In this document: one piece after another, positions 1,281 to 47,699 of the stretch
Numbering within the stretch: the first letter of the stretch is position 1
Layout of the letters: each line of letters starts with the position of its first letter
Assembly: GCF_036971445.1 (NCBI RefSeq)
Contig: NC_091472.1
Coordinates: forward strand, 91,822,001-91,886,000
From: Narcine bancroftii
Taxonomy: Eukaryota
DNA: 64,000 nt
Direction of reading: 5' to 3'
The notes under the pieces: generated by a model
The model's input: only the letters and a program-made list of their open reading frames with translations
The model's database searches: none
Told to the model about the DNA's origin: nothing
Made by a program: the position numbers and the translations under genes

Positions 1281-3716
1281 TATTCTAGTACTTTCTCTGC
1301 ATAATCTTTGGAAATCATGTCAAAGTTGGTGTCATCCAAATGATAGAAAGAATCCCTCTTGAATTGTCTCTTTAAGCTCAATGTATGTTGTTCAGCAACA
1401 ATTCTATTGTCAGGCATGCATATTTCTCTTTTCTTCAAAGGTGATCCAATGCAATAATGGCCATCTCCTAGCTGGCAGATTTTCAGACTAAATCCAAGAT
1501 CTGCTTGTCTTCTCTTGAAGGTTCTTGGCCATCACTGAGGCACTCAGGAAAATCAGTTCTGAATTGCTGTTCCCACAGCTCATCACATTTCACTACTGAT
1601 ATCCTGTTGACACTTGTCGCTAACTGCTCCTGAGCATTATCATTTTTTTTTCCTCCTTATGGTCCATTAAACCAAGTATGGTTTTGACAACACAAGGTCT
1701 GTCTCTCACATTCCGTATTACATCTAGTGGTTCCAGAGCCTTTGGTATAGCCAATCAGCAGCTCAGAGCCAATTTCAGGTAGAAGAACATTTCTCAGATG
1801 AGACCACTGATCGATATCGTTTTGATGTGGGATGTTTCTTTTGTGCACAGGCATAGTTTTTTGAGTGTATATGCATGGGAGATCACAAAAATCACTGGAG
1901 TCCAGCGACCTCTAAGCCTGAAACAATGCTGGTTTCAATGACCTTCCCTTGACCCATAATTCCCAATAGAATATTTGACTTTCTTCCCTGAAGATTGTTT
2001 ATTCATTAGCCCACCTGTGCAAAATGATGCAGTGCTACCTGGGTCAAGAAATGCATAAGTATGCACTGCTGCATTCATTCCCCTTCCTGGCCTTGACTAG
2101 TATTGAGAGTTTGCAGTTATCTTCACCAGCCCCAGTAAGACCACTTGTCTGAACAGAGGCCACAGCACTGTTTTCAGCTGATTCCTTCCTTTCTGCTTGC
2201 TCCTCTTCCATTTCCTTCTTTCTTTGGCAGATATGCAACATTCTGGGATGTTGCAGCTGAGTCGCTTCCTGCAGTTTTTGCTGATGTATCCTTTACACAG
2301 ACAGACAAAATATACTCCATTTTCTTTTAGGCAAGTGATTTTCTCACAATCTGCCCTCTTTTCCAACTGTGGACACATCTCCAAAGCATGTCCACCTCCA
2401 CAGAACAAACAGCTCGTCACAGCAATTGTCACAGTGATGGCAAAGATACTTCCTTTTATTCTTGGATGAGGCTGTGACTTGGACCTCCTTACATCTTTGC
2501 TCACTGTTGGAGTGTCTTTGATATCTCCAGATATTGGCTCTGCTGCAATCTGCACTTGCCATTCAGGAAAATCCTCCATATACTTAAAGGTAGCTCTTTC
2601 ACTGTGTTTTTCCTGGAACTTGCAGGCCACTGCTCACTACATATCCCTCAGCTGGTAGGGCAACTTCCTTATGATGACTAGTGTATTAGCAGGCATGTCA
2701 AGCTCATGCATGTAATTGATATCTTCTATGGCATTACAACATCCTCTTAGAAAGAAGGTATATGCCTGTAGAGCTTTTGGCCATATGTAGGCAACTTCTT
2801 ACAAGTTCCCTTGGCTGTCCTCTTGTGTACTGTTCCAGATAATAACTTAAATCTCCTTCTTGGGCATGGAAGAAAGATTCTGTAGCTGAATTAATAATGC
2901 AGTGATTTCATTTTACCTTTCTATGACTGAGAATACATTTCTCTGTTCACCGTTGCTTGTAGCAGGTAATGTAGCTGGAGATGTCACATGTGCATTTTCA
3001 CCCAGATTTCTGATGCTTGACTGAGGTGTCAAGGAAGCTGTGATGAGAGTTTGGATTTGAGCTGCAGCTCGGTCTGCGGTTGTTATTATTGGTGTTTGTG
3101 GATTGGTAACACTGTGCTTTGGGAGGATGTGTCCATTTGTATGCATGCCTTGTAACAGTGGTACAAAAGGATGTGTCTTAGCATTAAGCGTTTTTTTTCC
3201 GTTGTCCTTTCTCAAAATATGACTCCATATCATCAAATTCTTCAGATAAATTACTTCCAACACCAGATCCCTTTGAGGTTTCTAGTACCTTCACTTTGGC
3301 CATAGTAGCAGCAATATTTGCTTCCAGCTCCAGCTGCTCTTTTTTCCTCCTTAGCTGTTCCTCCCACTCTTCCAAGGCGCATTTATCCTAAAGCAATTTT
3401 TGTCATACAACAAGACCAGCCACTTCAGCCTCAGCCTTTATACATGCAAACATAATACTGGAAACTGGTATTTGATCCAGAAGAACTTTGTTTGCTTCCC
3501 CTGCTTCCAACATTTGACACACTATCACCTGATTGTATTTCATCACTCATGTCAGATGTCGCCATAATATTTGACTCTTTCTTCAGTTTGATTTGCACAT
3601 CTTTTGCATTTTCATCCTCTTCACACTATTTTGTGACACACCTTCAGCAATTTTAAATTCAGTCCATGTCTTCTGTGGCAGTTCTACAGGGTCTTCATTC
3701 CCATCAACCAAAGCCA

Positions 3717-3876
3717 CCTCTTCTTCTATTGCCTGTTTCAGCCTCTCAATGAGAATGCTTTTGACACCACTGATACCTAGGTTCTGCTGCTTCAGTTCTG
3801 ATTTGAGATCTACGACCCGCAAGTCTGTGATATATTGCGCCTCAGTGGCATTGCCAGCAGCAGTGGTATCAGCCGT
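3717..3876 (-). pseudogene. SLTM/SAFB-like N-terminal SAP-domain coding fragment embedded in BEL gag
   Basis: Reads (ACG)[52 protein letters not shown], closely resembling the recalled vertebrate SLTM N-terminus (..[39 protein letters not shown]). The start codon appears mutated ATG>ACG. Confidence 0.7.
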
Positions 3877-4316
3877 TTTATGCTTCTACCTTCAACCATC
3901 CGCTGAGCTTGAGCATTAAGCATGCGCAACACAAGCCCAAAATCAATAGTTCCAAATGGACAAGTGGCAGCAGTCAACAATATCGCTGTGACTCGACCAG
4001 CATGTATATAGGACATTCTGTTCTAAGGTTAGCAGCTTTGGTCCTTTCTGTGGCCGAAGCTCAGACTGATGGAGGTGGATTGCTATCAGCAGCCTGTGCT
4101 CAGCATTTACAACATGGCCACCATATTATTTTCAGTATTGTTCCAAACCGAAGAGGGGAAATATTCTAAATGTTCCAACGTCATCTATTCAATCCAAAAG
4201 TTCAAGATTCAAGGCACCCCTGCAGTTCTGTCGTAGATGCAGCTATTTTCTGTTCACTAAAACATAGCGAATACTATCCATGAAAAGGCCGCTTGGAAGC
4301 TAAGTAGGCTCTTAAC

Positions 4317-4678
4317 TGTGACACATTGGATTAAGTTCATAGTGAAGTCCAGATATGTTTTAAACTGTTTATTAATGAACACAAAAGGACTCGTAATGTG
4401 ACCTGATTGCCGTACGAAACATAATAACGACTGTGGTAATGTCCATGGTAACATGGTAACGATAAACAGAAAATATTAGAGCCCTATTCATCCTCCCCAT
4501 CTCTATCCCGGCATACCAGTCAGCATGACCTAACCACTGCCCAACCGTCTGTGCAACCCCCGGCCATGCACCAATGACTGAAGTGAATAGCACATGCACA
4601 CCGAAACAGAATGCGCGCAGCCTCCTGATGCCAGCAGCCAAACCAACAACAATAAACAACACACCTTTGGCTCTTACA
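4317..4678 (-). repeat. 5' LTR of the BEL/Pao element (~362 bp)
   Basis: On the minus strand it begins TGTAAGAG (4678) and ends TGTCACA (4317), with an internal AATAAA (tttatt at ~4368). It lies directly upstream of the gag region. Confidence 0.6.
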
Positions 4679-4994
4679 AGTGCAGTGGAATATTGAGGAT
4701 CTGATTCACTGTCAGAAGTGGCATTTTCTATAGAAAATTAGATTCTGAGGTACCTGTCCTCTTAACAGGTATAAAAAGGGCATGATACAAAGATGAGTTG
4801 GAGAGTTCTCCATATGTCAAACTTTACCGCTCAACAAACAGCACTAGAAAGCTTCTCTTCATTATAACAGTATTTGTGTGAACTTGCTTTTGCAAATTGG
4901 CTGTCACTTTACTTTCAATGGTCATTTAGAGTGTTGATAAATGCAATAACTTATTTATGTGAGCAAGATTAGGTTGGGTTGGGGAAGAAAATAC

Positions 4995-18900: not shown

Positions 18901-19601
18901 CTATGATAGCAAAGTGATTTGTCAAAAATATGAAATCATGTGGTTATCATAACTCATGGGGTTATCATAAATCATAACTCTGCAGATGGATGAAAAGGTG
19001 AATTTTGAAAGAGCAGTGAGGTTAATAGACTACAACAATAACAAAAACAGCAAATATAGGGATCTCAAAACATTTTCCATTTTCTTTGTTCTGAAGGTGA
19101 CCCCACAAAGCTTCTGACATTGCTTTGCTCAGGTGGCAGCTTCAGCTTTGACAAAGAGTAATGCAAGTAACGAGAAGCTGGAGAGATCTTGCAGGTCAGG
19201 CAGCATCCATGGGTAAAACAGGTCAGTCAGCATTTCCAGATGTAACACAAAAAAGGCCCCTACCCAAAACATTAGCTCTCCATGGATGCTGCCTGATCTG
19301 ATGAGACTCTACAGCCTCTCATATTGGCAAAGACTCTTTGCAGATGGCTTCCTATTTCGTCAACTATGTCCTTCGGAATGGCCAATCAGGAGAGAAGATG
19401 CAGTACATAAGCGTGCTAAAGAAACTCAGCAGGTCACACAATATCCGTAGGAAGTAAAGGGTAACCAATGTTTCAGGCCTGGACCCTTCATCGGGTATCA
19501 GACAAAAACAGGCAGATGCCTGAATATCAAGGTGGGGAAGAAGAAGAGAGGAAGGGGAAAGAGTGGATATTCTCTCTTTATTGCCAGTGCATGTTAGGTC
19601 G

Positions 19602-20052
19602 ACCACCCCTCCCCACTGGTGCTACTGCCTCTACCACCCCTCCCCACTGGTGCTACTGCCTCTACCACCCCTCCCCACTGGTGCTACTGCCTCTACCACC
19701 CCTCCCCACTGGTGCTACTGCCTCTACCACCCCTCCCCACTGGTGCTACTGCCTCTACCACCCCTCCCCACTGGTGCTACTGCCTCTACCACCCCTCCCC
19801 ACTGGTGCTACTGCCTCTACCACCCCTCCCCACTGGTGCTACTGCCTCTACCACCCCTCCCCACTGGTGCTACTGCCTCTACCACCCCTCCCCACTGGTG
19901 CTACTGCCTCTACCACCCCTGCCCACTGGTGCTACTGCCTCTACCACCCCTCCCCACTGGTGCTACTGCCTCTACCACCCCTCCCCACTGGTGCTACTGC
20001 CTCTACCACCCCTCCCCACTGGTGCTACTGCCTCTACCACCCCTCCCCACTG
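19602..20052. repeat. 31-bp minisatellite (CCACCCCTCCCCACTGGTGCTACTGCCTCTA), ~14.5 near-identical copies, followed by degenerate copies to ~20330
   Basis: Directly visible tandem array; only one variant base seen (19921). Confidence 0.95.
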
Positions 20053-21669
20053 ATGCATGTTGTCTCTATTATCCCTCCTCACCAGAGCATGCTGCCTTTA
20101 CCATCCATCCCTAATAGTACATGCCGATACAACCACCCATCTCTACTGCTCCTTTCCCCTCTTCCACCCTTCCCCACTGGTGTATGCCATCTTTACTATC
20201 ACCCCCTGGTGCATGCCATCTCAACCAGCCTTCTCCACTGGTGCATGCCACCTCTACCACCCTTCCGCGCTGGTGCACCCTGCTCTAGCACGCCTCCTTA
20301 TTGGTGCATTGCACCTACCAACTTCTCCAACTTTGACAAGGAAGCGATGTTTACACAAAATAGGCTGGTATTCCAATATAGTACTGGAGAGGGTGCTGCA
20401 CTTCCAAAAGTGTCATCTTCCAATGAAATCTTGCATCAAAGCCCCCTCTACCTTTTTGTGCATAAAAAGATCCCAAGGCATTGGATGACGAGGGTTCTTC
20501 CTGATTTCCTGAGATCTATACTTATCTCTATCCTAAAAGATGATTATCTGGGCATTAAAGAGAGATGCTCAAGTCAAACTAGGAAATTATTGAAATATTA
20601 ATCAAGGATCTATTACAATGAAGTTATTAGAAACTATAATTGACAGTGACTAAACATTCAGAGAAATTTGAGCTGTTTAATAAGAGTCGACACAGAATCT
20701 AAATCCACACCGATCACTTGTTTAAATCCTATTCCATCCCCATTTACAAGAATGGTGAAAACTGTGAGGGAATAAATTCAATAATTAAGTATATCAACGT
20801 CAATTTTGGTTGACAGTTAGCATAAGTGAAGTTTACAAAGTTTTAGTGGTCCATGTATATAATTCTCTGAAAATGCATTAAGTAAGCAGTAAGGCTAATT
20901 AAAAGGTTAATAGCTTTTGATTCTAGAAGGATAGAATGTGTTGGGATCAAGTTTAAATTATACTGTGCAAAATCTAGCTGGTCTAGATCTGGAAAAACAT
21001 GCATTATTTGTGGTCCTCTATCAAGGAAAGGATAAATTGGATATGGAAGAAGGGCAGTACAGATTCATCAGAATATTACCAGAGAGCTAAAGATAAAATT
21101 ATGTAAAGATTTATATTCCCAAGAATAGGAACAATTGGATTGTGGTTTTAGGGTTGAAAGGCATTTATTAGGTAAAACCTTCCCCAAAACAGCTGTTCAA
21201 TCAGAAGATGAATGATAGATTTGTTTTTTTTGTAAGGTAAATCAAGTCTTAGCTTTTACTACATTGATAGCCAGACAAGCTATTTTATTGAAATGGAAAG
21301 GAGATGCATCCCATACTCATATGCAGTGGTTACATGATGTAATGTCCTATTTAAGTTTAGAGAAAAATCAGATATAATAATAAAGATAGAAAGTTTCAAT
21401 TTATAAAGTTATGGGGCCCATTCTTAGAATGCATTTTATAATTGGAAGAGTGAATAAGTATTATATTTTATGGTAATTCAGGTCTATTCTCCAGGGGTCA
21501 CAGTGATTCCACATCATCATTGATCTCTTTTTCTTCTCAAAAAGGTAACCTTCATTAGAGGGAGAGGATTAGATTAGTTTTAAGTTTTTAAAAAAATATT
21601 TATTATTTCAATGATGAAATCAGTCTAATAATGGGTCTGACATGGTGTTATTCATTAAGTTTATTACTA

Positions 21670-21854: not shown

Positions 21855-24800
21855 TGTAGCGACCAGACCACAAAGTGGTTGACGAATGCGGCGATCATGT
21901 GGACTTGGCTGGGTGTGACACTGGCCATTGTCCCAGGTGACCTCTGAACAGTAGGTAGCTGGGGAACTCTGACTGGAGCACTGGCCAACTCAAGGCCAGC
22001 GCTCTGATGATGCAGGGCCTTGACGATAATGCCAGGGGTCCATATAAGCAGAGCTGCCAGGTCAATAAATCAGTCTTCGACTTCTCGTGTGTGCATCTTC
22101 CTTCCACACTTGCTGTTGCGCACACACTACATTAGTGACCCCAACAGGTCCAACTGGCAGTTAGACCCAAAGATGATGCATCAAGCAGAGCTAGCGACCA
22201 TCTACGGGGTCTCTCTCAGGCTTCTGATGTTCTGGATGTCGCAGCCACATGTGTGGTTCGAGCAGGCTGAGGCTCAGTTCTAGCTTTGCCACATCACCCT
22301 CGATGACACCCGCTACTTCTATGTCGTGAGTGCCCTCAATCAGAACACAGTGGCAAGGATCGTAGATTTCCTATGGCAGCCTCCAGAGCAAGGCAAATAC
22401 ATGGCACTCAAAGATCTGTTAACCCACACTCAGACTTTCACGGTGTAAGCACACCACCCAGATGCTGTATATGGCCAGATTGGGGGACATGGCCCCATCC
22501 GCCCTAATGAGCAAGATGCGGATGTTAATCGACGGCCACAAACCTTGCCTGCTCTTCGACCAGATCTTTCTGGAGCTGCTACCCATGGATATACAGCTCT
22601 TGCTCAAGGACGAAGACTTCAACGACCCTTGGAAGGTCACTGCCCAGGTAGACATGCTCTGGAGAGCGAAGGACACCAGTGCTGTCATAGACATTATCAG
22701 CAAGCACCACAAACAACATCTAGCGAGATCAAGGCCAGCAGAGAGGCAAGGGAACACCCTGGGACAGCTATGCTACTACCATCTGTGATGGGGTGTGGAG
22801 GCCCATTGATGCCACCAACCCTGCAGGTTTTTGGGAAACGCTGTGAAACCATCATTGACGGCTGCATCGGTTGGTCCATGTGATAGCCTCCTCCATGTCT
22901 GGGACTCACGGTTGGGCAGATGTTTCCTGGACAACACGACACCAAGATAAGCATCTTACTCCCTGCAGGCCTCGACACCAGCAGCAGCAAGCAGGCCCAA
23001 CTGGAGGGCAGCCACCAGTTCCTGCATTCGAACTTTCGGGACCCACACTATCCCCCTTCGTTTTGGCAACAGCTGCTTTAAATGGACATTTACCCCTGCG
23101 GCAGTGGTGCAACTGCTCCTGGGGCCTGATTTTCTTTGAGCCCACTGCTTGCTGGTTGACCTAAAGGGATGCCGCTTGGTGCATACCAGAACCTTTCAAA
23201 CTCTGCCTCTGGGGGCAATGAATTTTCCTGCATCCTGGCAGAGTTCCCCTCAATAGTGGTGACCAGTTCAACGTGGCCAAGCCAAAGTACAGGGTAAAAC
23301 ACCACATACTGATCCAGGGGCCCCACTCCACGCCAGGGTATCCTGACTCCCTCCCATAAAGCTCAGCCTGGTGAAGGAAGAGTTTAAAAAGGTGGAGGAG
23401 CTGAGGATTGTGCAGTACTCCGACAGTCCCTGGGCCACTTCCCTCTGCATGGTGCCCAAATCAGCAGGGGGTTGGAGACCATGCTGTGACTACCGTTGCC
23501 TCAACGAGGCCATCACATCTGACAGATATCCCATGCCCCATATCCAAGAGTTTGCCGCCAACCTGCACGGAGCACGTTCCCCAATGTGGACCTCATCAGG
23601 GGTACCACCAAATCCCAGTTCACCCCCAGGGTGTCCCCAAGACTGCAATCATAACCCCTTTTAGTTTGTTTGAATTTCTCTGCATGCCCTTCAGTCTACA
23701 AAAAAGTGCAGCACAAACTTTTCAGCATCTGATAGACGCAGTGAGTCAGGACCTCCCATTTGCGTTCATCTATTTGGATAAGATCCTCATTGCCAGCCGC
23801 AGCTGCAAAGACCACGCCACCCACCTGAGTCAACTGTTCATCCGTCTGAGTGATTTCGGGCTGACCATCAACTTTGCCAAGTGCCAGTTCAGTCTGGACA
23901 CCATCGACTTCCTGGGGCACAGGATTAACAGGCACAGGGCCACACCCTCCCCCGAGAAAGTTGAGGCAGTCCAGCACTTCGCTAAGCCACTGCAGGAATT
24001 CGCTGGTATGATAAACTTTTACCAAAGGTTCATATCGGCAGCAGCTCGCATCATGCTGGTCATCAGTGCAAAGCAAGGCAAAAGACATTGCTTGGGATGA
24101 GGAATCCTCCAGGGCATTCCAGAATGCTAAAGATGCACTAGCCAACTCCACCCTCCTAGTCCACCCCAGATCAGAGGCACCTACTGCTCTGTCAATGCCT
24201 CCAGCACAGCAGTAGGGGGCATGCTAGAACAACTTATCGAGGGCTAGTGGCAACCCCTGATCTTTTTCAGCAGGTACCTCCGCCCCCCCCCCCACCCCAG
24301 AACTCAAATACAGCGCTTTCGACTGAGAGTTGTTAGCGCTATACCTGGCAGTAAGACATTTCTGTTACTTTTTGGAAGGCTGGCAATTCAGGGTGTTCAC
24401 TGACCACATGCCACTGACTTTTGCCTCCCATAAGGTATCAGACCAGTGATCACCCCGATAAAAGAGACACTTGTCCTATGTGTGAGTTTATTACAGACAT
24501 TCAAAATATCTCAGGGAAAAACAATGTGGTAGCTGATGCTGTGGCATGCCCCACGATTGAGTAGATACCCCTGTCCCAAGGGATCGATTACATGGCCCTC
24601 GCCAAAGCACAGCAGCAGGACCTTCAGATCCCCACTTATAGGACAGCTGTCTCTGGTCTCAGGATGAAGGATGTCCCAGTCAGCCCAGTTAACCTGACAC
24701 TGCTGTGCGACATTTCTACCAGCAGCCCCACCCCATCGTCTCTGCTGCATGGAGGTGCCAGGTTTTTGAGGACATCCGCAAGCTAGCACACCCCGCAATC

Positions 24801-26063
24801 AGCGCCATGGTTAAAACGATGGCCAAAAGGTGTGTCTGGCATGGCCTCTGTAAACAGGTCAGCCAGTGGGCCAAGACCTGCACAAACTGTCAGTCCTCCA
24901 AAGTGCAGAATCACCAAGAGCACCCACACAGACTTTTGAGCCAGCACAGCGCAGGTTCAGCCATGTGCACATTGACTTAGTGGGGCCATTACTGGTTTCC
25001 TGTGGGGCGGGATACCTCTTGACCATGGTGGATCACTCCATGAGGTGACCAAAGGTGGCCCCGCTGGCTGATACCACCACAGAAACCTGTGCCAGGGCAC
25101 TTGTTGACACTTGGGAGTCCGGATTCAGGGTCTCAGAGTACCTCATCTCAGACGGGGGGGTACAATTCACCTCCGGAACCTGGGCAGCGCTGGCTAACTT
25201 TCTGTGGATGCAGCTCCACCATACCACCGTGTATCACCTGCAGGCCAATGGGCACCTGAAGTCCGCCTTGATGGCCCAGCTCAAGGGTCCAAACTGGATG
25301 GACAAACTGCCTTGGGTCCTGTTGGGAATCCGTACTATACCAAAGGAGGACATCAAAGCATCAATGATGGAGATGGTCTACAGTGTGCCTTTAATCATCC
25401 CCGGCAAATTCCTGGTCCCTGTTAAATGCCCAGAAGACCCTGCAGTGATATCGAGAGCCTGTTGTGAAAGCTGGATTCCTTGGTCCCGTGGCAACTCCAT
25501 CAAAAACCCAAGCATATCATCCCGAAGGACCCATAGATTTTCTAGTACATGTTCATGAAGAGGGGCGCACAAAGACCACCATTACAACGATCCTACGAGG
25601 AGCTCTACAGGGTCATTAGAGACAATGGTTCAACCTTCATCCACAACATCGGTGGTAAGAAGGAGACCTTTACCATTGACAGCCTGAAACTGGCAATATC
25701 TGGGCTGTAACGAGCCAGTCTTCACTCTGATCCTGCAAAGCAGGGGCAGGCCACTGAAGGCTATAGAAAATGGCCCAGTCACTGGTTTTTTGAAGGGGGG
25801 GGAGGTGTCGTGCACGGAGACGCGGACTGGCCCACAATATGGTTGATGAACGCGGTGACCGTGTGGACCTGGGGGTGACACAGGCCACCGTCCCAGGTGA
25901 CCTCCAAACAGTGGGAAGATTGGGAACTCTGACTGATGCAGGGCCCTGACGTCATTGCCAGGGGCCCCTATGAGCAGAACTGCCAGGTCAATAAATCAGT
26001 CTTCGACTTAAACTCCTCGTATGTGTGTCTTCCTTCCACACTCGCCGTCATGCACACGCTACA
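21855..26063 (+). mobile_element. Gypsy/Ty3 LTR retrotransposon, full-length but decayed (LTRs 21855-22131 and 25806-26063)
   Basis: TG..CA LTRs of clearly related sequence. PBS-like 'tagtgacccc' (tRNA-Trp-like) at ~22133; PPT 'gaagggggggg' before 25806. Gag 'FWMSQPHVWFEQAEAQF', RT 'SPWATSLCMVPK..WRPCCDYRCLN' and 'YLDK', integrase 'HVHIDLVGPL..LISDGGVQFTS'. Confidence 0.88.
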
Positions 26064-39096: not shown

Positions 39097-39592
39097 TGTA
39101 GGAGTTTAGAAACAGTTATTATTTTAATGGTAGGAGTTCTGAAACAGTTATAGAAGGTAGAAAGAAAAAAAGCAAGGAAAAAGCTAAAATGTTCTTTGTG
39201 TAAAATGGCACATGAAAAAGCAGAACAAAGTAAACAAGATAACAGAGGAATTTAAGCAGCCATAGAAATATGCACGTGCACACAAAAAGCTTGTTTAATA
39301 GGGGGTGGGGAAAGGAGGTGTGAGCACGGGATAAGAGAAAGTTGGAGTCAGTCAAGAGTCAGACGAATAGGGAAAAGTGCCAAACCAATCCAAGAAGGAC
39401 AAACATAAGACAAATGTAAGGGGAGGTGAAATGAAAATTGTATAAAAACAAAGAGGCTTCCCGCCCTTGGGGTACTTTCCCGAGGTAAGGGGAAGAGTAC
39501 CCAACCTTGCAATGTTGTAAATATACATAAATGTTCTTTGTTCTCAACTTTTGTTTCGAGCATATTTTGTGAACGCGAAGGCACTTCTCACA
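39097..39592 (+). repeat. 5' LTR of class I ERV
   Basis: TGTAGG...CTCACA; CCAAT at ~39385, TATAAAA at 39441. About 10 substitutions and 2 single-base indels relative to the 3' LTR by eye. Confidence 0.95.
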
Positions 39593-39595
39593 ACT

Positions 39596-39613
39596 TGGGG
39601 ACTCGTCCAGGAT
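39596..39613 (+). promoter_or_regulatory. Primer binding site, tRNA-Pro
   Basis: TGGGGACTCGTCCAGGAT versus the canonical Pro PBS TGGGGGCTCGTCCGGGAT (2 G>A changes), 3 nt after the LTR. Confidence 0.9.
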
Positions 39614-39816
39614 CACATTCCTTCCACTGACTGGTGCTTGTCTGAAGAGGGGTCGGTGCATCCCGGCTGATTTAGCCGGACTCCTGGTCGCCGAGTGTCC
39701 GGCCGTGGACGTAGCGAGTGATATCCGAGAAGAGACGTTGAGAACAAAGGATGGGACAGCCATGCGAGTGACATGCTGGGAAGGCTCGACAGCCGGGTAA
39801 GACTGATTTATCCACC

Positions 39817-41570
39817 ATGGGTGGGGGAGGGAGCAAAAAGAAAGGTCCGAGTACAGAACCGATTGAGAGAATTCCCCCGGGAAGCCCATTGGGGAGGCAA
39901 CTGATGAATTGGGGTGCGGGAAGGACCCGCGGGAAAAATAAAAAGAAAATGATTCGGTATTGTTGTCATGAGTGGCCCAAGAATCCAATTAAAGGGTCTT
40001 TAGTATTTTGGCCAATATACGGTTTGGATGAGGATTGGGTATGTCAGGCACTGAATACGTGGCTTTATGAAAATAGACCCGATGACTCCGAGAGCAGGGA
40101 TTACGCTGCCTGTTGGTTATTTGTAGAATCGAACCAAATGGTGATGACTACAAGGGATCCGGCAAAACCTAAGGAACCGGAGCCTTCGGCTCCTCTTCCT
40201 GAAAAATGGGACCCCTTACAGGCATTACCTCCTCCATATCCCGAGCTGGCTCCTCCGCTGCCCCCTCTTCCTCCCCGCCCACTTTATCCTCCCCTCCCAA
40301 TGTCGTCCACTTCACCCCTCCCCCCCACACCTTGTTAATGAAAATGAACAGAAGAATGTAGTTAGGACCAGATCACAGGCTAAGCGTCCTCCACCACCCC
40401 TTACTCCCCAGGTTGGTGACCCAGATTGTATTGGATTGTCGGAGGAACAGTGTGAAACCCTCTGTGAGGAGGAAGCCGGGGAGTTTGATTTGAGTCCTAG
40501 ACGACAGAAGGGGGACCCCGCCCTACCAGGGGGTCGGGGATCGGACCCGCACCAGGCGTGAATGTGTCCCCTTCGTGAAGTGCCCCTGGGAGGTCCAGGA
40601 GGTGCGATGGGATTTGTTAACGTCCCTCTAACAAGTAAGGAAGTGAGGAATTTTAAACAAGAAATGAAGTCCTTGATAGAGGACCCCCAGGCTTGTGCAG
40701 AACAATTGGATCAGTTTTTGGGGCCAAATATTTACACCTGGGATGAATTGATGTCCATATTTAAGGCTTTGTTTACTCTGGACGAGAGAGGAATGATTAG
40801 ACAGGCGGGAATTAGAGTATGGGATTGGGAACATCAAGGAGGTCCGGGGGCTGTGGCGGGGGAGGATAAGTTCCCCTTGGTTAATCCAAATTGGGATAAA
40901 GGAACTACTGAGGGTCGAACTTGGATGGAGGAGTATAGGGTTAATTTAATAAAGGGAATGAGGGAATCGGTACCCAAGGGACAAAATTTTAAAAAGGCAT
41001 TTGAGGTTCCTCAAGGCCCAGAGGAGACCCCCTCAGCCTTCTTGGCTAGATTGCGGGTGGCAATACAATAATACGGGGGGGCTGGATATAGAATCACCGG
41101 CCGATGAGCAGTTAGTTTTGACAGGATTTGTAATGAATTCAGCCCTGGACATAAGAGAGAAACTCCAAAAGACTGAGAATTTGCATGAACAGGGATTGTC
41201 ACAACTTCTACAAATAGCCTAGAGAGCCTATGTTCAAAGAAGTGAGGATAAGCAAAAAGGGAAGGCAAAGATTTTGATGCAGGCAGTGAAGCAAGTCATA
41301 GATGGACAGCAGGGAGGTCAAAGACGCCGGACCAACGGTCCGGGCAGATGGATGGGAATGAGTGAAAGAGGAGGGCCAGGATTTGAAGGATGGGATGAAC
41401 CCCAAGGTCCCCGTCCACGAGCGGGGGCCCCAAGAGGTGGTTCCAATAGAGGATGGCAAACAGGGCCCAAAGTTTGTTACTATTGTAAAAGAGAGGGACA
41501 CTTTAAGAGGGAATGTCCCCAGAGGATTAGGGGCACGTGGTCCTATGTTTTGATGGAAGAGGAAGATTAG
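39817..41570 (+). pseudogene. gag: ERV gag (MA-late domain-CA-NC), disrupted
   Basis: MG start (myristoylation), PSAP and PPPY late motifs, CA 'QGPEETPSAFLARL' and a single CCHC knuckle 'CYYCKREGHFKREC'. Frameshifts and stops at ~40338, 40560, 41071 and 41220. Confidence 0.92.
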
Positions 41571-44500
41571 GGAAGTCAAGGTTCTCTCGTAAGGAGTGCC
41601 GTGGGGCTGCTTGGAGAACCATTAGTAAACTTAAGCATAGGACCCCACGAAGAGGACGTGATTTTTATGGTAGATTCGGGAGCAGCTCGTTCTAGTATTC
41701 TAGCCAAACCCAAAGGAACGGTGCCTAATGGGAAAGTAGTTATTTCAGGGGTTGGGGGATCGGATTTTGAGGTTCCAGAATTAAAAGGCCTCAGAATACA
41801 GATGGGAAGAAAAGTGATAGAAGGAGATATTTTACTAGTTCCCCAAGCAGGAGTCTGCCTGCTGGGACGGGATTTGCAAGATCTATTGGGTATTGGGACC
41901 CGGCCTCAAGGAAAGGGAATTGGAGTTCAGTTCTACATGTTGACACAAGAAGATCGCGAGCTGATTGACCCCAAGGTATGGGCGAGAAAAGGAAACGGGG
42001 GGGGGGCTTGATGTACCTCCTCTTCAGGTCACGTTGAAAGACCCCACTCAGATAGTTAGACGAAAACAATACCTAATCCCAATGGAGGGAAGGAAGGGAC
42101 TGCAACCCGTGATTGATCAACTATTATTGGATGGGTTACTCGAACCCTGTATGTCCCCCTTTAACACCCCAATACTGCCAGTATGAAAACCAGACGGTAC
42201 TTATCGGCTGGTACAAGACCTACGAGAATTAAATAAGGTGATTTTGGCCCGATACCCCGTTGTGCCTAATCCTTATACAATTATGGGAAGAATAAATCCG
42301 AATAGTGAATGGTTCAGTGTGATAGACCTGAAAGATGCCTTTTGTGCTTATCCTCTGGATGAGGGCAATAGGGACATGTTTGCATTTGAATGGGAGAACC
42401 CGTATACTGGGCGAAAGAACCAGTATCGCTAGACAGTTCTTCCACAAGGCTTCACAGAGTCCCCTAACTTGTTTGGCCAGGTATTAGAACAAGGGCTGGA
42501 TGAAGCTCCAAAAAGACCAGACTGTCAATTAATACAGTATGTAGATGACTTATTAATCACGGGAGAAGGACAAGAGACTATTAAACAGTATACAGTAGAT
42601 ATGTTAAATTTCTTAGGAAACAAAGGATTGCGGGTTAGTGAGATGAAGTTACAATTCATACAGCCAGAAGTAAAATACTTGGGTCACTTAATTAGTCAGG
42701 GAAGCAGACGTATCAGTCCGGAAAGAGTACGCGGAATTCTGCAGGTCCCTCCTCCCAAGGACGCTTGTGAACTTAGGAAGTTTCTGGGCTTGGTGGGATA
42801 TTGCCGAATTTGGATAGAAAATTATTCTAGTTTGGTAAAATTTTTGTATGATAAGTTAGCTGGCCTAGATAATTCTCTTGCTGTCTGGACAGAGGAAGAA
42901 ATGGAGGAATTTAAGAGGATAAAGAGTTGTCTTGCCAAGGCTCCAGTGTAGGCATTACCTGATTTGAATAAACCATTTGACTTATTTACTAATGCAAAGG
43001 ATGGGGCAGCTACGGGTGTATTGACCCAGGAGCGAATGGGGCTCTGGCAACCAGTGGCGTTTTTGTCCAAGGTATTGGACCTAGTTTGCCACTGATGGCC
43101 GGAGTGTGTCCAGGCTATTGCTGCCACCGCTGTCCTGGTAGAAGAGAGTCGTAAGATTACCTTTGGTGCACCAATGACTGTCCATACCCCGCACACCGTC
43201 TGAACTATTCTGTTACAGCGTGCGGGGAAGTGGTTGACTGATTCGAGAATTCTAAAATATGAGGCAATTTTGATGGACCGAGATGACTTGACGCTGGTTA
43301 CTAATCGGGACCAGAATCCAGCAGCCTTCTTAGTCTCTCCACTAATTGAGGCAACTTCTGACCAGTTAGAACATGAATGTCTGGAAGTAATAGATTTGCA
43401 GACTAAGATCCGGAGCGATCTAGGGGATGAGTCTCTATGTGAGGGAGAGAGATGGTTTATAGATGGTTCTTCTCGTTGTATAGACAGAACCCGTTACAGT
43501 GGATATGGCATAATGAATGGCAAGGATGGTTCTGTTATCGAAGCTGGTCGCCTCACTGGTCTCTGGTTGGCTCAGACATGTGAATTATATGCGCTGTATC
43601 GAGCCCTCCAGGGGCTACAGGGGAAAGTAGGAACAATTTACACTGATTCTAAATATGCTTTTGGAGTTGTACACACCTTTGGAAAAATTTGGAAGGAATG
43701 AGGGTTGATTTCAGGAAAGGGCCAAAAATTAGTCCATGAAAATTTAATAATCAAATGTTTGGATGCTTTAATGCTGCCTAAGGAGGTGGCTGTGGTCCAT
43801 GTCCGTGGACATCAGATAGGGGAAAGCCCCGAAGCCCGAGGTAACAGACAGGCAGATGAGGTCGTAAAGGAGGCATCCATGGGAGAGACTATACAAATAT
43901 ACGTGTTGTTACACGTACCCCGGGAGTTACAGAAAAATCCTATTTTTACCGAGGCAGAGCAGAGGCAGATGGAGACACAGGGGATGTATAAAACCCGAGA
44001 TGGACTGTGGTGGACAACAGGTGGGTTACAAGTATTAAGTCTGGCAGTAGCAAGACAGGTTATAACTGGACTCCATCTGCAATCGCACTGGGGAACACAG
44101 GCATTGGTTGATGCCTTTAGTAGCCGATACTATTGCTTTGGTATTTATACCCTCGCTAAGCAAAGTGTTCAGGGGTGCCCCCTCTGTCAATGGGTAAATA
44201 AAGCCTCCATGCGTAAGTCCATGAGTGGAGGTCGTGGCCTGACTGTGCGCCCCTTCCAGCACATGCAGGTTGATTTCACTGAATTACTCAGGTCCGGTAA
44301 TTATAAGTACCTGTTAGTAATGATGGACCACTTTACCCGTTGGGTTGAGGCCTTTCCTACTTCAAATGAACGAGCCGGAACAGTGGTTCGATTAATTTTA
44401 GAGCAGATAATTCCACGATACGGAATTATCGAGACCATTGACTCGGATAGAGGACCGCACTTTACGTCTCGTGTGCTGCAGGAGGTCTGTAGATTTTTGG

Positions 44501-45126
44501 GCATAGATTGGCAATTACATACCCCATGGCATCCTCAGAGCTCAGGACAAGTAGAAAGTATGAATCAGACGCTTAAACTTCAGCTCACCCGCCTGTGTGC
44601 TGAGACAGGTCCCTCCTGGCTTAAATGTTTACCCCTAGCTTTGATTCGTATTCGCACCGCTCCCTGTCGTGATGTTGCCGTCTCCCCGTATAAGATGATG
44701 TTCGGCCTTCCTTATCTTGGCTCCCATACAGACGTCCCAATCCCGCAGGCAAATGAACAATTTATATCTAAGTATCTGCAGGAATTTTCCACCACGTTGG
44801 CTGATCTGAGAAGAAGAGGGATTCTAGCACAGACGCCGCCTTTGGAATTGCCCATACATACCATTCAACCCGGTGACTGGGTATTGATAAAGAGTTGGAA
44901 AGATGTTAAATTGATGACAACCTGGGATGGTCATTTTTGTGTCCTTCTTGTTATAGACAGTGCAGTTCGCACTCGATAAAAGGGTTGGACGCATGTTCAG
45001 CGAGTAAAGCGGTATCGTTTGCCCCCCGAGACTCACGAGGACCCACAGGACTCCGAATGGTGGTCCGAGTTACACCCCGATAGAGTTAAATTGACTTCGC
45101 GAAAGAAGGATCCAAGAAAATGTTAA
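41571..45126 (+). pseudogene. pol: ERV pro-pol (PR, RT, RNase H, IN), disrupted
   Basis: In frame after the gag TAG (TAG GGA AGT CAA GGT, gamma-type readthrough context). PR 'VDSGA', RT 'LPQG'/'YVDD', RNase H 'FIDGSS..TDSKY', IN 'HHCC' and 'VDF..DSDRG..VE'. About 8 stops or frameshifts. Confidence 0.93.
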
Positions 45127-46058
45127 AAATGTGTCTTTTACTCTCTATTGTGGGGATGGGTTGTTTCATTGCTGCTGTTAGACCAACCGATGTTACAAGC
45201 TGTGTGAAAGATAATTGTAAGAGGACTACCTTACCCCTCTGTTCCCAGCTGGGTTGTGAAAAGTCCTACTGGATACGGGGCAGCACTGAGGGAGGTGAAA
45301 AGGGAGGTGGAATGAGACAGGAGAGGATCTTTGAGGCTTGGTCGAATGTGCCAGTCCAATGCGCAGCAAATTCTACCTTTAAGCTTTGCTCCTTCGGGGG
45401 CAGGACGCTCATGGCTCTTTGGTGTCGTGGGGGCGGTGGGTCTCGTGGCTGTCCACCCCGGGGCCGGATATGTATGTTTCCTGGCTTCGGCAATCCAGGG
45501 GACCCCTTAGTTCGAACGGCAACATACCTGGAACTGGAAACGACCATGGCTCCAACTACCACCTTCCCAGATGGAGTCCGTAGGAGCCTGTATGAGAGGG
45601 CCAGGAAACAGGCGAATAGACACAGACTTGGGGATAACTTATGGGTTGATTTACATCAGCTTACAGTTCAGGAGCTTGGGGTCCGCAACTGTTGGATTTG
45701 TAGTGGTCCAACCCGGGACGGCACATGGCCATGGAGGGGAGAGCCGTTAGATGATCGAACCCTCCTCGCTTCTAACCTGTCTGCTGGTACTTCCAACCGG
45801 TCCCGTGAGTCTTGGAAATTGGAGAATCACCCCCGGGGTTTTAAGTGCTTGATGAAGGACCATGGCAGCCACCCAAAGGGCGACTCGGCTTGCCACAGGT
45901 GGAAGAATGTTACCAGCAGTGCTTGGGGTCCGACCCCATTCACTCCTTTCTTATCGCCTTCTAATAGGTCTGATACTGCATGTGTGCCCTTGTCTCCTAG
46001 TACTTCTTGCCTTAATACTGATCCCTTGCATCCTTCCTTGCCTCCAGTGTTTGGTTAG
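45120..46058 (+). CDS. env: ERV env SU-only ORF (312 aa); internal deletion removes most of TM
   Basis: Hydrophobic N-terminal signal-like peptide and 'NCWIC' CXXC motif; no furin-TM/ISD/CX6CC block. The TM anchor and tail survive out of frame at ~45990-46125 (LLVLLALILIPCILPCLQCLVRRAV). Confidence 0.8.
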   Translation: MLKMCLLLSIVGMGCFIAAVRPTDVTSCVKDNCKRTTLPLCSQLGCEKSYWIRGSTEGGEKGGGMRQERIFEAWSNVPVQCAANSTFKLCSFGGRTLMALWCRGGGGSRGCPPRGRICMFPGFGNPGDPLVRTATYLELETTMAPTTTFPDGVRRSLYERARKQANRHRLGDNLWVDLHQLTVQELGVRNCWICSGPTRDGTWPWRGEPLDDRTLLASNLSAGTSNRSRESWKLENHPRGFKCLMKDHGSHPKGDSACHRWKNVTSSAWGPTPFTPFLSPSNRSDTACVPLSPSTSCLNTDPLHPSLPPVFG

Positions 46059-46194
46059 ACGAGCCGTTCGACAAATCAGTCCCATTATGGTTCTGCAACA
46101 ACAGAAGCGGCAGAGAACCTTCTGAAACTATGGGAAAAAGATACTTCTATTATTTAGACAAGTTTGAAAGCGTAGCTCTTTTTAAGGGGTGGAT

Positions 46195-46690
46195 TGTAGG
46201 AGTTTAGAAACAGTTATTATTTTAATGGTAGAAGTTCTGAAACAGTTATAGAAGGTAGAAAGAAAAAAAGCAAGGAAAAAGCTAAAATGTTCTTTGTGTA
46301 AAATGGCGCATGAAAAAGCAGAACAAAGTAAACAAGATAACAGAGGAATTTAAGCAGACATAGAAATATGCACGTGCACACAAAAAGCTTGTTTAATAGG
46401 GGGTGGGGAAAAGGAGGTGTGAGCACGGGATAAGAGAAAGTTGGAGTCAGTTAAGAGTCAGACGAATAGGGAAAAGTGCCAAACCAATCCAAGAAGGACA
46501 AACATAAGACAAACGTAAGGGGAGGTGAAGTGAAAATTGTATAAAAACAAAGAGGCTTCCCGCCCTCGGGGTACTTTCCCGAGGTAAGGGGAGAGTACCC
46601 AACCTTGCAATGTTGTAAATATAAATAAATGTTCTTTGTTCTCAACTTTTGTCTCGAGCATATTTTGTGAACGCTAAGGCACTTCTCACA
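46195..46690 (+). repeat. 3' LTR of class I ERV
   Basis: Follows PPT 'aaggggtggat'; intact AATAAA at 46624-46629. Confidence 0.95.
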
Positions 46691-47699
46691 ATACCATTGC
46701 GTCAACTATGTAAACATTGCACATTGCAAACTGTGAGATGATGTCAAAGTTCAGCTTTATTGGATTAAATAGCAAGATGTGTAGAGCAAAGTTATCAAGC
46801 AGAAAAATTAAACATAGCTCAATAAAGAGTTGTCCAGGCGCAGACATGTAGTGTAAAGTTTTAAAACTAACAGTGCAAATGTACAATCATAGTGGCCTGG
46901 CTGTGGCTATTCACTGTGCATTAATGCCACGTGCATTTTACATCTGATGTAAACATTTGCTGATTAAATGCCTTAACTTCTGTACTTGTGCCTCGATAAT
47001 GTTACAAATCTAATAATAATGTTGCATCTGACACCAGCGCATATCAGACATTTAACAAGACAAACATGTGAACCATTTCCTGGCACTCATGCTCAATGCA
47101 GAGAATCGGTAAAAAGTAATACACAATAAGTCAAACATAATACAAAACACAGCGTTTGGTCCATTATCTGACCCATGCATTATCTCAATCCGCCCCCCCC
47201 CCAACCCCAGAGCAATAGCTTATAAACCTCAATACACTTATGTGTTGCAGCAATGAGACACAGCATAAGAACACATTTGTTTTGCCCACACCACTGTGTG
47301 CCTGTGTCCCCACGTAAACATATTACATGCTAATAATATGCAACACTGCGCATTAAGAAGTATGATGCACAGGAATTTGAAATGCAAAAATCTCATTTAC
47401 TGACCGCAACGGCACTGCTGAGAGGATGAGGGGAGGGGTAAAGGATGTAGACAATTTCCCCTTGGGACTGTTTGGCAACCAGTGGGAATGACCTGCTGTG
47501 GGGTGGCCTGCAGGTAATGGGTGAATTGCAGTTGAGACTGCATCAGGACAAGGGGGGAGGTGGCTGCTGGGAGGGTGATGTGGGGGGGGGGAAAGGGTGG
47601 GGGGGAATGTGAAGGGGCTGCTACTGAGATCTGAACATATATACACTGGAGGATTTCATTAAGCACAGAATTTCACACATGACACAGGGGAGGGCTGGA

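Follow-up and report, generated by a model that had tools for sequence, protein, structure and literature searches.

Apparent capture of a SAP domain from spliced host SLTM RNA at the start of Gag in a BEL/Pao retrotransposon family of rays

How did the SAP domain of a host chromatin protein come to stand ahead of a retrotransposon Gag, and did it do anything there? These questions are raised by a decayed element in the window, the 64,000-nucleotide stretch of Narcine bancroftii DNA analysed here. The reading that we prefer, and consider probable, is that one template-switch capture by a BEL/Pao element placed a piece of spliced SLTM ahead of gag, with the SAP domain likely acting as a tether to double-stranded DNA.

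The window element and its SLTM-derived segment

The window copy is a full-length but decayed BEL/Pao LTR retrotransposon on the minus strand, and it extends left past the window edge into an adjoining stretch (L120) that holds the remainder of pol and the 3′ LTR. Together with L120 it aligns to residues 170-2056 of P0080, a 2,066-aa Gag-Pol protein with DUF1759, Peptidase_A17, RT, integrase and DUF5641, and through this alignment the BEL/Pao order (Gag with DUF1759, Peptidase_A17, RT, integrase, DUF5641) can be followed along the element. The 5′ LTR begins with TG and the 3′ LTR finishes with CA, next to a short target site duplication (TSD), the end of the 5′ LTR being decayed here; the LTR pair differs at 73 of 434 aligned bases (17%). 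The original prediction had bounded the 5′ LTR at 4317, which needs correction, as the LTR runs from 4678 to about 4263. The features of the element are as follows.

4679..4683, minus strand: 5-bp TSD GCACT, with its twin after the 3′ LTR in L120, left of the window
4263..4678, minus strand: 5′ LTR, compared with the 3′ LTR in L120
3922..4262, minus strand: element leader from the LTR to the captured piece, common to family copies
3877..3921, minus strand: SLTM-derived proximal 5′ UTR, firm over the last 16-20 nt and probable to -45
3874..3876, minus strand: position of the host-derived start codon, ACG here and ATG in 17 of 19 close copies
3733..3873, minus strand: coding part of SLTM exon 1 (Ala-rich leader and SAP; Pfam match at 3724-3828)
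3717..3732, minus strand: first 16 nt of SLTM exon 2, fused straight to exon 1, with the 3′ capture breakpoint at 3717
3563..3716, minus strand: Gag N-terminal linker, in which NAKDVQ..LE aligns to P0080 residues 53-67; frameshift near 3625
1289..3562, minus strand: gag, protease and the first part of pol of the BEL/Pao element, all decayed (P0080 residues 170-1032); the RT, the integrase region and the 3′ LTR are in L120
1..1280, plus strand: nested LINE-like fragment splitting pol

The LINE-like 3′ fragment at 1-1280 gives a Pfam match to ALKBH8_N. Elsewhere in the window, 39097-46691 holds a young endogenous-retrovirus-like element with terminal repeats 96-99% identical, a 425-aa frame that matches RNase H, integrase and an MLV-type integrase C-terminus, and downstream of it a 322-aa frame without a Pfam match. 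A minisatellite of about 16 near-identical 31-bp units lies at 19506-20309, and direct repeats about 3.9 kb apart (21909-22131 and 25869-26063; 79-89% identity) are possibly the ends of another LTR element.

The SAP domain (Pfam PF02037, E 5.6e-9, window 3724-3828, minus strand) scores 35.8 bits in the window copy against a cut-off of 23.9, and its PDB matches are the SAP domains of MKL1 and Tho1; two other copies, L048 (23.7 bits) and the diverged L069 (18.3 bits), fall below the cut-off. The domain lies within a minus-strand stop-free frame (3885-3586) and is preceded by TAAA-ACG (ACG at 3874-3876) and an Ala-rich leader. The prediction of a complete SAP motif behind that leader, with ACG as a decayed ATG, is borne out by the Pfam match and by the ATG found in nearly all of the close copies (a group described below) in which the start could be located. 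Among the scored copies none is the single intact, conserved and expressed copy that would define a domesticated host gene: the window copy has ACG, stops and frameshifts, and the longest ORFs among 39 copies do not exceed 542 aa.

The host SLTM gene lies at about 46.57-46.63 Mb of G000:C29, where 19 tblastn pieces cover the SLTM protein P0003; a protein search of G000 also gave one match ending at KQ (L052), which is SLTM exon 1. When window positions 3862-3717 were compared with spliced SLTM exon 1 plus the first 16 nt of exon 2, 126 of 146 bases (86%) were identical, and the 1,016-nt GT..AG intron 1 was missing from the element. The intron that the original prediction had placed between KQ and AIEEE does sit there in the host gene, and a contig from a run labelled as RNA joins host SLTM at the same exon 1/exon 2 splice. 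The donor was SLTM, as had been proposed, and SAFB was rejected, since the SAP core of the window copy matches SLTM at 91 of 102 positions, compared with 63 and 68 of 102 for two SAFB-like genes. UTR identity to host SLTM, the other nucleotide-level check suggested beforehand, is clear in the 16-20 nt just before the ATG and dies away by about -45. The RNA-labelled contig of host SLTM has a further 226 nt ahead of the ATG, so what the element took was internal to the transcript, although close to its 5′ end; the predicted capture of an mRNA 5′ end thus holds for the region of the transcript but not for the cap end. Transfer in the opposite direction, from element to host, was rejected on the grounds that the fish protein fragments P0037 and P0040 exit the SLTM frame at the same KQ and that P0080 is a relative of the element without SAP.

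Capture from spliced RNA is very likely. The host piece has an intron-less exon-exon junction, element sequence on both sides and no poly(A) or TSD around it, as in LTR-mediated capture; the only TSD flanks the whole element, which speaks against the passive retrocopy that a separate TSD or poly(A) was to have revealed. A processed pseudogene would show the mRNA 3′ end, poly(A) and its own TSD, and the element contains no more than about 210 nt from near the 5′ end. Capture by template switching is documented for LTR elements, with one case in a BEL element among those described in the available text of PMC5131818. By such a route SLTM mRNA would have been co-packaged in the particle, the reverse transcriptase would have switched onto it and back (a double template switch), and the host SLTM ATG would have been turned into the gag start. 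It is very improbable that no RNA was captured and that the element instead holds a genomic SLTM piece with a DNA-level intron deletion, or a LINE-made retrocopy trimmed within the element. LINEs are plentiful in the genome, and the window copy itself has one inserted in it; DNA-level intron loss stays compatible with the sequence by itself because exon 1 and intron 1 share the same final 6-7 bases, a microhomology at the intron ends. However, the intron loss is exact at the GT..AG splice, the captured piece has no poly(A), TSD or mRNA 3′ part, and it is in sense, in frame and located at the start of the Gag N-terminus. Later splicing in the RNA cycle of the element would yield the same junction and would still be RNA-based.

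Copies, lineages and relatives of the family

The first-look searches returned 293, 350, 449 and 333 candidates, rough counts of which only 40-150 were scored each time. The alignment set comprised 109 unique loci, 77 of them with a well-aligned SAP region. The intron is absent in all 77: between 14 and 24 bases span the exon junction (exactly 20 in 69 copies), against roughly 1,036 expected with the intron in place. In 49 copies identity to the host drops at one shared base, after 16 nt of exon 2. Because every one of the 77 copies lacks the intron and 49 share the 3′ breakpoint, we conclude from the alignments that all SAP copies stem from one capture. The original prediction had left a choice between a family-wide fusion and a one-off retrocopy; the number of candidates per search and the in-frame intervals in most close copies settle it in favour of the former, and the one-off retrocopy was rejected, as many copies share the SAP segment without the intron.

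Contigs from runs of organisms C and D, and one contig from organism B, span the SAP-gag junction. In the SLTM intron 1 region organisms C and D differ from G000 by roughly 6-10%, and organism B is nearly identical. As judged by these contigs, the capture is older than the splits of organisms C and D from G000, because the C and D contigs already cross the junction. Mean divergence between paired LTRs is 16-20% across the four main groups, measured on short alignments and with a few probably not true pairs. All copies examined are old and decayed, and the family is now dead. A search for the family in RNA data listed no RNA source; family-like contigs in one run that we guess to be RNA are putative transcripts. 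Six nearby copies at 124-129 Mb of G000:C15 (L082, L090, L091, L094, L115 and L118), which include both SAP and SAP-deleted forms, make up a tight clade that suggests recent segmental duplication or conversion.

The fusion to Gag is best seen across copies. Counts of a single frame from ATG to Gag (8:5:6) were uninformative and short intervals were used instead: in a group of 31 close copies, eight intervals lead from the ATG across SAP to the Gag core, and the length of each is divisible by 3 in 22-28 of the 26-31 copies measured. One copy (L040) runs in one frame from the ATG into Gag with a single stop. The window copy, whose ATG is lost, has a stop-free frame to 3586 yet departs from the Gag frame near 3625, so the in-frame run toward gag that had been described holds for the family and fails in the copy in which it was noticed. 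In many copies the linker that follows SAP can be aligned to residues 53-67 of P0080, which has no SAP, and the ray family appears to lack about residues 68-165 of that protein. Because the linker aligns in this way, SAP is, by alignment, placed ahead of a native, shortened Gag N-terminus.

Three lineages followed the capture. These groups were gathered by different queries and their copies are not independent, so the integrase contrasts given here are indicative only. In the close group SAP is 82-92% identical to the host and often accompanied by pol, with integrase in 16 of 27 10-kb loci. In the diverged groups SAP is 63-71% identical to the host and only gag and protease are present, with integrase in 1 of 30. 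In the deletion group an in-frame loss of 147 nt has removed SAP and joined the leader, which still follows the host UTR and ATG, to KPLQ; integrase occurs in 2 of 18, the junction is common to about 12 of 14 copies, and the distance from ATG to Gag is a multiple of 3 in 10 of 13. Among 39 copies chosen by their gag body regardless of SAP, 7 carry SAP, about 18 show the SAP deletion, and in the remainder the 5′ part is absent from the fetched stretch.

Trees leave SAP-less and SAP copies unseparated. We rejected the SAP-less copies as pre-capture ancestors, since the host UTR, ATG and leader are present in them and 30 nt common to the other lineages are missing; no pre-capture element DNA was found in G000, where the SAP-less copies are later deletions. 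We also rejected the diverged lineages as independent BEL families, since they have the same capture breakpoint and a Gag linker shortened in the same way. Protein trees root them outside the close group and P0080/P0013, a placement that we read as long-branch attraction, and it is possible that recombination moved the 5′ end to them. Gag-protease-only BEL derivatives (L069-L080 and L171-L190) are abundant, and many stop at the same residue after protease; going by their sequences, they are a non-autonomous lineage whose protease was still evolving under constraint. Both kinds of derivative, those that kept SAP with gag and protease only and those that deleted it in frame, would probably have been mobilised in trans by the complete form.

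The Logan proteins P0016 and P0080 and the fish-annotated P0013, P0015 and P0017 have the same Gag-Pol domains as the ray family. P0080 has an N-terminus of its own without SAP, whereas the ray family has SAP in front; P0013 and P0015 begin inside gag, and their N-termini are not displayed. P0013, P0016 and P0080, fish-annotated or unnamed, are unusually near the ray family and are candidates for horizontal transfer. Close copies are 62-73% identical to P0080 despite their decay and adjoin the grouper protein P0013 on short branches in protein trees. Because of this identity and these short branches, the protein comparison suggests that the element passed horizontally between bony fish and rays not long before the capture took place.

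Constraint on the SAP domain and its possible role

Within groups the SAP 0-fold/4-fold ratio is 0.92-1.11, which corresponds to neutral decay. A dN/dS estimate had been proposed as a check: the net SAP ratios between close and diverged copies (0.73 and 0.64) are below 1, but their bootstrap intervals span 1 (26-34 of 100 replicates at least 1) and they are not significant. The protease control gave lower net ratios, 0.32 and 0.42, and other gag regions were noisy. The NG86 value for SAP, 0.37, is biased low, and transition bias inflates its significance (neutral within-group value 0.59).

Comparison with a SAP profile, built from 39 SAP repeats of unrelated proteins, gave a clearer pattern. 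In 41 diverged copies (63-71% identity to the host), all 8 of the most informative SAP positions are kept, versus 7 of the 13 others (Fisher p 0.046), and retention correlates with information content (rho 0.65, p 0.0014; rho 0.19 in the close-copy control). The observed profile score of the diverged copies is attained by 2-6 of 1000 neutral simulations, although the simulations undershoot slightly in the close group (52 and 48 versus 56.5) and undershot badly in an earlier version. About a fifth of SAP sites changed on the stem of the diverged lineages with all 8 core positions kept, and several core residues are constant despite codon changes. A Lys-Ser/Thr pair, mapped by spacing to K53/S54 of SAFB2, is found in 24 of 29 copies of the close group and in 19 of 36 of the diverged ones. 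Support for the chromatin/SAR-binding module envisaged by the original prediction is partial: the diverged sub-lineages kept the SAP core, but the codon test falls short of significance and SAP was deleted in frame in one sub-lineage.

The SAP domain of SAFB2 binds double-stranded DNA with a slight AT preference and micromolar affinity, K53 and S54 being decisive for binding, according to the available text of PMC9958909. A role of the captured SAP as a DNA tether is proposed because the SAFB2 domain binds double-stranded DNA; SAP-Gag would have bound AT-rich chromatin or the cDNA of the element itself, aiding nuclear retention or integration. Counting against a tether, the SAP-deleted sub-lineage multiplied well, as the gag-body sample above indicates. 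On balance, a working DNA-binding role for the captured SAP seems to us rather probable.

The passenger explanation, in which the capture was valued for a strong host start codon and leader and SAP was tolerated as a folded tag and lost by chance, is less likely, though it keeps real weight because SAP could be deleted. It agrees with a deletion lineage that drops 147 nt in frame and retains the host UTR, ATG and Ala-rich leader, and with the lack of significance in the SAP codon test. What it explains less well is that diverged lineages retain all 8 core positions and, for the most part, the Lys on the DNA face, although selection for a mere folded tag would likewise preserve the SAP core. 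The deletion copies, moreover, mostly lack integrase (2 of 18 with it, against 16 of 27 in the close group), so they probably depended on the complete form.

A further explanation, counter-defence, is improbable: SAP-Gag would have acted as a decoy that competed with or bound host SAFB/SLTM proteins and so weakened repression of the element. The idea draws on the identity of the donor, as SLTM belongs to a set of repressor genes; the available text of PMC10901741 describes suppression of L1 by SAFB1, SAFB2 and SLTM, and of LTR/ERV elements in mice and flies, and a minor dimer form of the SAFB2 SAP is described (PMC9958909). However, repression by the SAFB family is described there as RNA-based, and neither the RRM nor the ER region is part of the captured piece. 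A decoy would be expected to stay host-like, whereas the longest-evolving lineages drifted to 63-71% identity, and the donor may have been picked by chance, given how abundant SLTM mRNA is. That the donor comes from a retrotransposon-repressing family nevertheless makes counter-defence a question that can be tested with short natural peptides.

We put forward only tentatively the broader scenario in which an autonomous vertebrate element co-opted the SAP of a host repressor on its Gag under selection, as tether or decoy, and was thereby aided in a burst soon after its entry into rays, probably by horizontal transfer.

Comparison with known systems

Chromatin-binding accessory modules are found in other retroelements, among them MLV p12, foamy virus Gag, the chromodomain of chromoviruses and PHD fingers in some Gag or ORF1 proteins. 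Those modules are old or native to the element, whereas the ray SAP is a datable host capture with a putative function. Accessory domains of retroelements are usually too old for their donors to be traced; in this family the origin of one can be followed at single-base level, with donor gene, splice junction, breakpoint and frame all legible, and so can its later history, in which some lineages retained the domain and another lost it in frame. Its meaning is bounded by the family being dead and by a SAP function that we infer.

Animal LTR-mediated retroposition, in which a piece of host mRNA lies in sense within an LTR element, has no intron, poly(A) or TSD and can be amplified, was described by Tan et al. 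2016 (PMC5131818), and their cases resemble ours in the intron-less sense host piece, one of them in a BEL element. In their Drosophila cases, as given in the available text, the retrocopy takes the place of parts of the ORFs, yielding a product that behaves as a non-autonomous element. The animal LTR captures described in the available text mostly cripple the element, whereas the ray capture left gag-pol complete and founded a large family: it is an in-frame gag fusion with RT and integrase kept, hundreds of candidates and domain-level constraint. Maize Bs1 is likewise an LTR element with transduced host gene fragments as a chimeric ORF (PMC7264820, PMC5131818); it is a plant element with pieces of three genes, whereas the ray family is a vertebrate BEL/Pao that keeps pol and has a single domain from a chromatin protein at the N-terminus of Gag.

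No SAP-Gag fusion in BEL/Pao was found in the literature searched, which lay outside Repbase, Dfam, most subscription journals and supplements (the tables of PMC5131818 could hold an in-frame case), nor in protein collections among the 12 matches of one search, the 25 of 59 examined from another, or a third, which is weak evidence of absence. SAP as an accessory transposon module is known from Zisupton DNA transposons and the Penelope-like element Chlamys-1 (PMC8557442), which are other element classes with SAP in other positions (inside RT in Chlamys) and whose donor gene is unstated in that passage. We conclude that, set beside these sources as available, capture of mRNA by LTR elements is already known (Bs1; Tan et al. 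2016) and the SAP-Gag fusion in BEL/Pao is a new variant of it, unlike Zisupton and Chlamys-1 in that its donor, splice junction and breakpoints are legible in the DNA.
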